DNA of 64,000 nucleotides from Escherichia coli (GTDB lineage: Bacteria; Pseudomonadota; Gammaproteobacteria; Enterobacterales; Enterobacteriaceae). Numbering within the stretch: the first letter of the stretch is position 1; every line of letters starts with the position of its first letter. The notes under the pieces are model-generated. The model saw only the letters and a list, made by a program, of their open reading frames with translations. It was not told where the DNA came from and did not search any database. The position numbers and the translations under genes are program-made. This document shows, one piece after another, positions 33,368 through 35,404 of the stretch. The stretch lies in assembly GCF_013315695.1 (NCBI RefSeq), contig NZ_CP054353.1; one strand, given 5' to 3'.

Positions 33368-34509
33368 ATAGTTTAACGGCAAATAACCGTTTGTCGCAAC
33401 AGCTGGTGGTCAGCGTCGCTGAACACCTGTTGTTACGGCATGAATGCAGATTACCAAATCACCTGGCTGTAAGTAACCACAGAGAACTTTACCTGACTGT
33501 GGGGGGCGAGTTGTGCAGGAACTTAACCGCTGGTTTCGTGACGGAAGAGGGCTTTATGTCCATGTTATTCGTTGGGAGCCAGAAACACAGCGCGTTATCT
33601 ATCTTCGCAAAGACTACCCGCATGAGTGCTTTAGTCCTTTGTGGAAATTCAGGCGTGATTTTGTTGAGTGTGAAGGACCACCAGCATATTGATTCTGCAA
33701 TTCCGGGACGTTACACTGTTCAGGCACCTTATAAAGCGGGTGCCGGGATTGGCGTCCTGAAATTCGCACATGCGCATAACCGCGCTTCAGCGGTTTTTTT
33801 GCGCACGTTTCCTCACATCCAAATTATGGTGGGGCGTGCAGGGGCATCGAAAGATGCGCCGGGGTCATGTGCGACCGGTTACGCCAACCCTGTACGTCTC
33901 ACCACCTCTGTGATTGGCGTCCCATGTGGTGAGTTTTCAAAATTCGCACATGAGGATGTCACTATGGCAACCACCCCTACCCAAACTCACCCTAAAATTG
34001 ATGTTATCCATGGGAAGGCTGTTACCTCTTCTTTGGCCGTTGCCGAATATTTCTGCAAGCAGCACAAAAACGTTATTCAAAAAATCCAGACGCTTGAGTG
34101 CTCTGTTGAATTCACTGAGCTGAATTTTCAGCCCAGTGATTACACCGATTGCACAGGCCGCAAACTCCCTTGTTACCAAATCACCCGCGACGGTTTTGCG
34201 TTTCTTGCCATGGGCTTCACGGGGAAACGTGCTGCCCGGTTCAAAGAGGCATACATCAATGCCTTTAACCAGATGGAGAAACAGCTTTCAAATCCCTCTG
34301 TACTGAGCGACGTTGCACATAACGCCAGCGTTCTCTATTCCTACATTTCATCAATTCATCAGGTCTGGCTGCAGCAGCTTTATCCTATGTTGGCAAAAGC
34401 CGAATCTCCGCTGGCTGTTAGCTTGTATGACTATATTAATGATGCTTCGGCGCTGGCCTGCCTCATAAATTTGTCGCTGAATCCTTCAGAGGTAAGGGGG
34501 CGTAAATGA
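33364..34509 (+). CDS. rha: Rha-family phage regulatory protein (copy 1); the likely true start is the internal ATG at 33964
   Basis: C-terminal ...LPCYQITRDGFAFLAMGFTGKRAARFKEAYINAFNQMEK. MATTPTQ...AVTSSLAVAEYFCKQHKNVIQKIQTL looks like a Rha N-terminus. Confidence 0.65.
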   Translation: MNSLTANNRLSQQLVVSVAEHLLLRHECRLPNHLAVSNHRELYLTVGGELCRNLTAGFVTEEGFMSMLFVGSQKHSALSIFAKTTRMSALVLCGNSGVILLSVKDHQHIDSAIPGRYTVQAPYKAGAGIGVLKFAHAHNRASAVFLRTFPHIQIMVGRAGASKDAPGSCATGYANPVRLTTSVIGVPCGEFSKFAHEDVTMATTPTQTHPKIDVIHGKAVTSSLAVAEYFCKQHKNVIQKIQTLECSVEFTELNFQPSDYTDCTGRKLPCYQITRDGFAFLAMGFTGKRAARFKEAYINAFNQMEKQLSNPSVLSDVAHNASVLYSYISSIHQVWLQQLYPMLAKAESPLAVSLYDYINDASALACLINLSLNPSEVRGRK

Positions 34510-35404
34510 TCCGGAATATTTTCAAACTGTTTACCAATCGCCACCAGCATATTGATTCTGCAATTCCGGGACGTTACACTGTTCAGGCACCTTATAAAGC
34601 GGGTGCCGGGATTGGCGTCCTGAAATTGTCAACGGCGATGTATGACGCGCCAGCGTCTTTTTTATCGTCCGCATTTGCTCACATCCAGATTATGGTGGGC
34701 TGGGCGGGGGCACCGAAAGGTGCGCCGGTCTCCGTTGACGCCGGTTACGCCAACCCCGTCCAGTTCACCACCAGTGAAATTGGCGTTTCCGGTGGTGGAA
34801 GTTTTTCACTGTCAACGGAGGCTGCCATCATGGCTACGATCCCAGCCCTCACTCAACCTGAAATCACCATTGACAACGGCCAGGCCGTTACCACTTCTTT
34901 GGCTGTTGCCAACTTCTTCTCCAAGCGTCACGACGATGTGCTGAAAAAGATCCGCACTCTGGATTGTTCCCCTGAGTTTTGTGCCCGCAATTTTGCGGAG
35001 ACATCGATTTCGGTAAATCAACCGAACGGTGGTACACGCAAGCTCCTTTGCTATCAAATCACACGAGACGGTTTTGCGTTTCTTGCTATGGGTTTCACGG
35101 GTAAACGTGCTGCCCGGTTCAAAGAGGCATACATCAATGCCTTTAACCAGATGGAAAAACTGCTTTCAAAGCCATCCACGCTGAGCGATGCCGCAGATAA
35201 CGCCAGCGTGCTTTACTCCCACCTGTCGGTAATCCACAAGGTCTGGCTGCAGCAGCTTTATCCCATGTTGGCAAAAGCCGAATCCCCGCTGGCTGTAAGT
35301 CTGTATGACCGCATCAACGACGCGGCGCTACTGGCCAGTCTCATAAATTTGTCGCTGAACCCTTCAGAGGTAAGGGGGCGTAAATGATCCGGAATATTTT
35401 CAAA
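33679..35404 (+). repeat. diverged tandem duplication (two ~863-bp units) spanning the Rha genes
   Basis: caccagcatattgattctgcaattccgggacgttacactgttcaggcacc... occurs at 33679 and again at 34542. gaggtaagggggcgtaaatgatccggaatattttcaaac recurs at ~34489 and ~35372. Confidence 0.8.
34506..35387 (+). CDS. rha: Rha-family phage regulatory protein (copy 2); the likely true start is the internal ATG at 34830
   Basis: Paralogue of copy 1 carrying the same conserved C-terminal block. Confidence 0.65.
   Translation: MIRNIFKLFTNRHQHIDSAIPGRYTVQAPYKAGAGIGVLKLSTAMYDAPASFLSSAFAHIQIMVGWAGAPKGAPVSVDAGYANPVQFTTSEIGVSGGGSFSLSTEAAIMATIPALTQPEITIDNGQAVTTSLAVANFFSKRHDDVLKKIRTLDCSPEFCARNFAETSISVNQPNGGTRKLLCYQITRDGFAFLAMGFTGKRAARFKEAYINAFNQMEKLLSKPSTLSDAADNASVLYSHLSVIHKVWLQQLYPMLAKAESPLAVSLYDRINDAALLASLINLSLNPSEVRGRK

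Follow-up and report, generated by a model that had tools for sequence, protein, structure and literature searches.

A lambdoid prophage of Escherichia coli contains, in its early-right operon between cII/DUF4222 and the replication genes, two diverged head-to-tail copies of a segment that encodes a Rha-type protein. The question raised by this locus is what was repeated, and how two different copies came to stand side by side. The locus lies in a stretch of 64,000 nucleotides from contig NZ_CP054353.1 (assembly GCF_013315695.1), referred to below as the window, and positions are those of the window unless another record is named. An earlier note on this DNA, made from the sequence alone, described an ancient tandem duplication of a Rha-family module with a conserved protein leader; as a whole that interpretation is partly supported. 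The region is read here, with a probability of about 0.8, as a tandem pair of self-contained riboregulatory switches of the C4/IsrK type, formed from alleles that had already diverged and that circulate on their own.

Extent and mosaic structure of the repeat

A repeat search of the window found three co-linear blocks of direct repeat with a spacing of 863–878 bp: 33678–33800 and 34541–34663 (87% identity), 33794–33931 and 34660–34797 (75%), and 34159–34458 and 35037–35336 (84%). Pairwise alignment and BLAST join these into two units on the plus strand, unit 1 at 33678–34539 (862 bp) and unit 2 at 34541–35417 (877 bp), which are 77.9% identical. They represent two alleles of the module, allele A in unit 1 (b' loop GGUCAUGUGCGA) and allele B in unit 2 (b' loop UCUCCGUUGACG). 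The earlier note had estimated by eye two units of about 863 bp and about 75% identity at 33679–35404, and the extended direct repeat that it expected on self-comparison is present. Unit 1 begins 15 nt upstream of the stop codon of the DUF4222 gene, and unit 2 ends 34 nt inside a gene for a 74-aa protein. The note was also right that the end of each unit overlaps the start of a common peptide – the long open reading frames (ORFs) at 33364–34509 and 34506–35387 both terminate in LINLSLNPSEVRGRK, with an ATGA overlap onto MIRNIFK(L/R)FTN, and the same stretch of 11 codons occurs again at 35384, where it opens the 74-aa ORF.

Identity between the units is strongly mosaic, with segments ranging from 56% to 100%. 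The first 86 nt are identical (100%) and the last 75 nt are 97% identical. Between these ends, identity is 61% in the segment holding the b1 site and a terminator, 75% in the C4 RNA, 56% in the region from the a2 site through b2 to the Shine-Dalgarno sequence, 59% at the N-terminus of Rha, 92% in the Rha core, and 77% at the Rha C-terminus. Each unit has a diverged "specificity" region, as had been proposed. An assembly artefact was considered as a cause of the repeat and rejected: an identical block of 2245 bp is found in 6 complete E. coli genomes, and also in two IMG/VR contigs (L048 and L106).

IsrK and C4 RNAs in the leaders

The conserved leader of each unit had been taken for the N-terminus of a protein, which was not borne out: the ca. 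290 nt on the 5' side of each Rha start consist of the genes for two small RNAs, IsrK and C4. The window was scanned with Rfam models at their gathering thresholds (50 for IsrK, an Hfq-binding small RNA, RF01394; 45 for C4, RF01695; 46.7 for c4-a1b1). IsrK-like RNAs were matched on the plus strand at 33724–33800 (62.3 bits) and 34587–34663 (62.2 bits), each with an intrinsic terminator (33778–33795 and 34644–34657) followed by a run of T; both terminators were found independently by a separate terminator scan. C4-type antisense RNAs, members of Rfam clan CL00128, were matched on the same strand at 33822–33909 (75.1 bits) and 34688–34775 (81.4 bits), in both cases over the full length of the model.

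The C4 fold, a long closing stem with two internal hairpins, is backed by compensatory changes. In 32 distinct C4 homologues taken from other phages, 100% of the 864 cells that make up the 27 base pairs of the Rfam structure are paired, and 8 of the pairs have changed on both sides. When the structure was slid by 1–3 columns as a control, only 33–51% of the cells paired. The third hairpin stem is uninformative in this test, since the pattern used for the search prescribes it. In the leader, differences between the units fall about equally on the three codon positions (23/20/24, with no third-position excess), versus 11/7/34 in the body of the Rha gene, where the third position is in clear excess. 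The pattern of change in the leader is thus that of an RNA and not of a protein.

A putative promoter precedes each IsrK gene. In unit 1 it consists of TTGATT, a 17-nt spacer and TACACT (33689–33717, plus strand), with a predicted start site near 33724; unit 2 has the same sequence at 34552–34580 on the same strand, within the first 86 nt that are identical between the units. Both align with the promoter region of isrK in the Salmonella prophage Gifsy-1 (TTGACA, 18-nt spacer, TATATT).

The open frame through the leaders and the Ash family

An alternative is that the long ORFs are real and encode two-domain "Ash + Rha" proteins of 293 or 381 aa, as in RefSeq, with the matches to RNA families incidental. 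There is some basis for it. In strain 582, RefSeq treats the frame of unit 1 as coding and assigns it to a Rha protein of 381 aa. Neither leader contains a stop codon in the Rha frame, compared to 5 and 1–2 in the other two frames, and this frame is open through IsrK and C4 in 50 of 62 distinct modules. Profiles made from proteins include the leader stretch – the Pfam family Ash (PF10554) matches the long ORFs exactly over IsrK plus C4 (E=2e-14 and 9e-21), and PHROG 821 has the same extension of ca. 143 residues. In Gifsy-1, orf45, which starts in the 5' arm of C4, is reported to be translated (PMC4825925), and the corresponding AUG is found here in frame with Rha.

The evidence on the other side is of several kinds. 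The base-pair covariation in C4 is perfect, which is unexpected for coding sequence, and the leader lacks the codon-position bias of a translated protein domain. A conserved Shine-Dalgarno sequence and ATG stand exactly at the b2 target (described below) in all scored alleles. The leader is joined to unrelated cargo, sometimes out of frame: among the matches listed, it precedes Rha proteins of 177–187 aa, proteins of 120 aa and 77 aa, Icd-like proteins of 62–65 aa, and an 81-aa protein, and the first codons (MAT.PT) travel with it across at least five unrelated cargo types (IMG/VR loci L004–L123). One unit of E. coli S88 has an interrupted long ORF, although its RNAs and its Rha gene are intact. 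Finally, PF10554 also matches an obsolete ORF of phage P4, the "cI gene product", at the very place where the Rfam C4 match marks the P4 CI RNA, and this P4 "cI protein" is in fact an RNA (PMC4825925, discussion). The Ash family is built on ORFs such as this one. Two-domain proteins of this kind are considered very improbable, and the leaders are read as RNA genes.

Hundreds of E. coli prophages have annotations for the Ash domain and for long Rha-family ORFs, which have served as markers in surveys of Stx phages and P4 satellites (PMC8951638, PMC8628076). To a large extent at least, what is annotated there is RNA genes read as protein, so that public records give these proteins wrong start codons and wrong domain architectures.

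Some related observations concern the same annotations. The frame at 33364–33964 is open for 600 nt, from the cII stop codon through the DUF4222 gene (which is in another frame) and both RNAs into the first Rha gene, and in relatives it is often open for exactly 606 nt. The P4 record (L125, 8168–8692) still annotates a 137-aa coding sequence, "cI gene product / transcriptional repressor", over the CI RNA. One paper states that the Ash family derives from the epsilon protein of P4; this was rejected, as epsilon is PF25738 and Ash matches the old cI ORF. One survey took PF10554 as a marker for P4 epsilon, which is actually PF25738.

Address sites and predicted orthogonality

In phages P1 and P7, C4 keeps an antirepressor operon repressed: its pairing sites overlie the ribosome-binding site of the first gene. 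The immI regions of these phages, with the order c4 antisense RNA, icd, ant, were reportedly described by Citron and Schuster in 1990 (cited in PMC7313666). Release from a longer transcript by RNase P is a further trait of the C4 family. Their C4 belongs to the same RNA family, RF01695, and recognition involves two sites, a' and b' in C4 against a1b1 and a2b2, with b2 on the ribosome-binding site of the first downstream gene, as here; allele-specific pairing would be the basis of heteroimmunity. The P1 module differs in that it is a single module in the immunity region of a plasmid prophage with icd as the first gene, followed by ant, whereas here the Rha gene directly follows the leader and the modules lie in a lambdoid early operon.

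A direct complement search located the equivalent sites in both units. The constant a' site (ACGCCAA, C4 nucleotides 60–66) lies at 33881–33887 in the C4 RNA of unit 1 (C4-1) and at 34747–34753 in that of unit 2 (C4-2). It complements the 7-nt sequence UUGGCGU, which occurs once inside each IsrK as a1 (33749–33755 and 34612–34618) and once on the 3' side of each C4 as a2 (33914–33920 and 34780–34786). The b' site is the variable 12-nt loop of the second C4 hairpin (33863–33874 in C4-1 and 34729–34740 in C4-2). The loop of unit 1, UCAUGUGCGA, pairs at 10 of 10 positions with b2 (UCGCACAUGA, 33944–33953) and over 9 nt with b1 (UCGCACAUG, 33764–33772, in the IsrK of that unit). The loop of unit 2, CUCCGUUGAC, likewise pairs at 10 of 10 positions with its b2 (GUCAACGGAG, 34811–34820) and over 8 nt with its b1 (GUCAACGG, 34628–34635, again in IsrK). 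The target regions as a whole span 33914–33956 and 34780–34821 on the plus strand. In each, b2 overlaps the Shine-Dalgarno sequence (GAGGA at 33952–33956 in unit 1, GGAGG at 34817–34821 in unit 2), and the Rha start codons at 33964 and 34830 are each 8 nt past it. The order of the sites, a then b in the target and b' then a' in C4, is consistent with antiparallel pairing.

The complement search found no complement of either C4 loop in the other unit. Duplex energies, calculated from the loops only (whole hairpins are uninformative, their stem arms being paired elsewhere), separate the two systems. At the target of unit 1 the energy is −16.6 kcal/mol for the cognate C4-1 and −5.4 for C4-2; at the target of unit 2 it is −23.8 kcal/mol for the cognate C4-2 and −9.9 for C4-1. 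Overall, cognate energies range from −16.6 to −23.8 kcal/mol and non-cognate energies from −4.5 to −9.9. Since the a' site is common to the units and the b'/b1/b2 triplets are different, each C4 would be predicted to control only its own Rha gene, and by this pairing the two switches look orthogonal.

The same relation holds across the family. An exact-pattern scan of IMG/VR for the b hairpin found at least 120 loci, and at least 21 different b' loops occur among the matches listed, the fetched E. coli loci and the window. Twenty of the 21 alleles had sufficient flanking sequence to be scored, and all 20 have their own b2, a perfect complement of 7–10 nt at a fixed offset 3' of C4 on the Shine-Dalgarno sequence. 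The match to b2 averages 8.95 nt within an allele versus 4.5 nt in the 380 cross-allele pairs, and the match to the upstream b1 site averages 7.35 nt within an allele versus 4.7 nt across alleles.

One b' allele (UUUCCGUAUGCG) was found with several cargo types, so RNA address and cargo reassort. In unit 2, the segment 34697–34704 in the 5' arm of the C4-2 stem (GGGCUGGG) complements codons 4–7 of the Rha gene (CCCAGCCC, 34841–34848), a pairing that may be part of a long-range alternative structure like helix b-I of Gifsy-1.

Distribution and origin of the tandem

The module family is found in 1909 of 5426 complete E. coli genomes, nearly always as a single copy spanning about 1367 bp. At an identity of at least 99%, 69 of the 5426 genomes contain the variable part of allele A and 111 that of allele B. 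Contiguous junction sequence was found in only 12 – 7 with A followed by B as in the window, and 5 of the type found in E. coli S88, in which a third allele, C, is followed by A. An IMG/VR contig (L087) has C followed by B. The pairs A-B, C-A and C-B have the same junction and the same backbone. Tandems make up 3 of 120 IMG/VR loci among the matches listed. The suggestion that paired diverged copies are uncommon is in agreement with these counts.

The comparison with single-copy relatives that the earlier note proposed did find such relatives. Unit 1 is 99.9% identical to the second unit of S88 (L001). The segment 32782–34539, which includes the whole of unit 1, is 98.4% identical to the single-copy allele-A module of strain AH20K059 (L127); the context is also the same, and the locus in the window amounts to the AH20K059 locus plus a unit of 878 bp. 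For allele B, the segment 34543–35156 is 99.4% identical to a single-copy module in strain AR_0013 (L002), with the match ending at the Rha core, a recombination point. In AR_0013, alleles A and B are in two prophages 443 kb apart.

In strain 582 the identical block is beside a different cI/cro/cII set, and the tandem occurs with at least two such sets. A further tandem was found in E. coli TUM9812 (L126, 1845–4325), with allele D followed by allele E and a period of 989 bp. Its junction falls after codon 51 of the downstream gene, compared to codon 11 in the shared junction, so the D-E tandem formed independently. All five tandem pairs seen join two different alleles. In TUM9812, a RelE/ParE toxin gene with its helix-turn-helix antitoxin partner is inserted on the opposite strand just upstream of the tandem.

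The junction in the window (34506–34540, plus strand) consists of a duplicate of codons 1–11 of the 74-aa gene (MIRNIFKLFTN) that runs into the beginning of unit 2. The third copy of this stretch, which the earlier note described as a third, truncated leader, does exist at 35384; it is the authentic 5' end of the 74-aa gene, and not a truncated leader. This gene (35384–35608, plus strand) is a conserved, full-length member of phrog_1153 (positions 1–74 of 74, E=4e-45) with no assigned function. The original is thus the "third leader", and what stands at the junction is a fragment. The 74-aa gene is also found 3' of the single-copy module in AH20K059, and is present in S88.

These data bear on the proposal that one ancestral Rha module was duplicated in place long ago, with the copies diverging and their ends kept alike by gene conversion. 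The units are co-linear over their full length, and ends of 97–100% identity around a middle of 56–77% are a pattern that conversion could yield. Yet alleles A and B occur as single copies at 99% identity or more in 69 and 111 genomes, with the tandem in 12, and three different allele pairs meet at one and the same junction. The same mosaic of conserved and variable segments is seen in at least 20 alleles that exist as single copies, allele B recombines at the Rha core in AR_0013, and the data suggest that A and B are not sister lineages. Duplication in place, which was the earlier note's account, is considered unlikely. The single-copy occurrence of both alleles, together with the one junction shared by three pairs, points to juxtaposition and exchange of alleles that had already diverged, and not to divergence in place. 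Illegitimate joining would have placed two such alleles side by side, and alleles would later have been exchanged by homologous recombination through the conserved segments, at either end of the unit and in the Rha core.

A different possibility is that the tandem is a neutral and transient scar of recombination, without functional consequence, in which one unit is redundant or silent. The rarity of the tandem, in 12 of the 5426 genomes and the few IMG/VR loci mentioned above, fits this explanation, and no phenotype is known. On the other side, both units keep promoter-like regions, both RNAs, targets and Rha ORFs intact. The tandem is found with at least two different cI/cro/cII sets and has formed at least twice with different junctions, and all five pairs consist of two different alleles, never of two copies of one. 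A neutral scar is a real but lesser possibility.

Proposed mechanism and the closest known systems

Each unit is laid out as a weak, inferred promoter, an IsrK-like RNA containing a1, b1 and a terminator, C4 reached by read-through, the a2/b2 target and the Rha gene. The mechanism proposed for this layout is drawn by homology from P1 and Gifsy-1; the parts, their complementarity and the covariation were computed here. In a lysogen, each unit would have its own weak promoter to drive transcription, and the IsrK terminator would end most of the transcripts. Those that read through would give rise to C4, which would pair through a'/a2 and b'/b2 and shut the ribosome-binding site of its own Rha gene. 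Short IsrK, which has the same target sequences, would titrate C4 and turn Rha on. Rha could in this way be made when IsrK levels go up, or when induction brings strong transcription from pR. Both C4 RNAs could also act in trans on another prophage or an incoming phage carrying allele A or B. As a side effect of the arrangement, transcription from pR would have to cross two intrinsic terminators before reaching the replication genes.

The closest known system is the isrK – orf45/STnc1160 – anrP locus of Gifsy-1, in which the isrK promoter drives both a short, terminated IsrK and a translationally silent read-through mRNA (PMC4825925). The short IsrK activates this mRNA in trans, a stable processed RNA from downstream, STnc1160, is complementary to IsrK, and the AnrP product leads to prophage induction (PMC4825925). 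IsrK and STnc1160 are highly transcribed in lysogens (PMC7067206). By Rfam, the Gifsy-1 locus has IsrK, C4 and c4-a1b1. The order of elements is the same as here – promoter, IsrK with its terminator, C4-like RNA, target at the ribosome-binding site, regulator gene – and the leaders align at the nucleotide level, promoter region included, with the a and b sites in the same places. There are also differences. The Gifsy-1 module carries AnrP, which is one of the ORF6N proteins and has no relation to Rha, so the two systems have the regulatory cassette in common but not the cargo. The Gifsy-1 module is a single copy downstream of Q, whereas here the modules are in tandem between cII and O. Its b' loop is shorter, and its orf45 is a separate ORF, while the equivalent AUG here is in frame with Rha.

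The immunity region of P4 (seqA – CI RNA – seqC) is also related: the Rfam C4 and IsrK models match the CI RNA and the seqA region, and Pfam Ash matches the obsolete cI ORF just as it does the leaders here. P4 is a single-copy satellite element with different cargo genes, and its CI RNA works chiefly by ending transcription of the replication operon prematurely (PMC4825925, discussion). For the cargo proteins, the closest known counterparts are Rha of phi80 and orf201 of P22 (PF09669), and both proteins here have a full-length Rha domain. Their defining phenotype is a block of lytic growth in hosts defective in integration host factor (IHF) (PMC4936722); the proteins in the window are linked to them by the domain match.

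Several points weigh against the reading of the locus as a pair of working switches. A sigma-70 consensus scan found no plus-strand promoter in the units, the IsrK-1 site reaching 8 of 12 positions where 9 of 12 were needed; the IsrK promoters are called only by their alignment to Gifsy-1. The Rfam c4-a1b1 model reached 21.6 bits in the window, below its gathering threshold of 46.7, and the a1 and b1 sites were instead assigned from the IsrK model and direct complementarity. With the frame open across IsrK and C4, ribosomes may traverse the leader, as reported for Gifsy-1 orf45, and the mechanism may involve more than a mere block of the ribosome-binding site. The common a' site could allow partial cross-talk between the units. 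The Rha proteins have no similarity to Gifsy-1 AnrP (E=2.6), and their suggested role as antirepressors or other regulators of the lysis-lysogeny decision comes by analogy only. C4 and IsrK activity at this locus is itself a prediction from sequence. An adaptive value of the tandem is not demonstrated, given that only 12 of 5426 genomes carry one.

The cassette itself is of a known kind, and a tandem that combines two specificities seems not to have been described: the literature searched contained no account of C4 or IsrK modules in tandem, though absence there is no proof. A bolder and more tentative reading, thought less probable than not, is that two-switch tandems are a recurrent, selected architecture, in which b'/b1/b2 form a hypervariable address code of at least 20 alleles and the two units act as independent RNA locks, with translation of the leader perhaps part of the switch. 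If this were true, a prophage with two addresses could interact with two different classes of phages, co-resident or incoming, either silencing them or being activated by them. The module occurs in about a third of complete E. coli genomes and in at least 20 RNA specificities, which suggests that recognition by an RNA-based code is widespread among co-resident prophages. Such prophages include phages of the Stx type, whose induction matters clinically. The tandem is also a natural pair of predicted orthogonal riboregulators in one operon, which may be of use as parts for synthetic biology.

Rha proteins and neighboring genes

A Rha-type core in each unit, as described in the earlier note, was confirmed by Pfam (PF09669, E=3e-32 and 4e-27 for the two long ORFs). 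The Rha-1 coding sequence (33964–34509, plus strand, 181 aa) matches PF09669 at residues 21–106 (E=1e-32, 113 bits); it has third-position bias and the conserved start MAT.PT, which is common to homologous modules. The Rha-2 coding sequence (34830–35387, plus strand, 185 aa) matches phrog_821 (E=2e-111), and the long ORF that contains it (34506–35387) matches PF09669 at residues 129–218 (E=4e-27, 94.9 bits). In both units the Rha domain is full-length, covering profile positions 1–91 of 91 with scores above the cut-off of 29.9. The two proteins are 71% identical.

No KilAC/ANT, ORF6N or Bro-N domain was found in either protein by Pfam at E ≤ 0.01; a KilAC domain had been one of the earlier suggestions. 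The Rha domain is the sole feature in common with PHROG families labelled anti-repressor. The C-terminal ca. 75 residues match no Pfam family, and no solved structure is related by sequence, the best match in the PDB having E=0.74. Rha had also been said to interfere with lysogeny in IHF-deficient hosts, while the published phenotype is that lytic growth is inhibited in IHF-defective hosts (PMC4936722).

The small gene that precedes the module, at 33513–33692 on the plus strand, encodes a DUF4222 protein (PF13973, E=9e-14; phrog_1343, E=2e-36) and is annotated in relatives. On the other side of the tandem, the gene next after the 74-aa gene encodes an O-like replication initiator (35605–36423). 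Direct repeats inside this gene at 35870–36024, 21/24 nt and 12 nt, look like iterons, which would put an origin within the initiator gene as is the case in lambda.

Other features of the window

The late region at 40260–45395 has the layout of a Stx phage without the toxin genes: no stx ORF was found between Q and the esterase. It contains the Q antiterminator (40260–40646), an AraC-family ORF (41950–42663), three tRNAs (42692–42938), STnc100 (43017–43225), the anti-stx2 small RNA AsxR on the minus strand (43229–43281), and a 653-aa esterase with DUF1737, SASA and DUF6645 domains (43434–45395). At 14941–15021, an Rfam Peptidase-S11 cis-regulatory RNA motif (72.8 bits) probably marks host chromosome outside the prophage.

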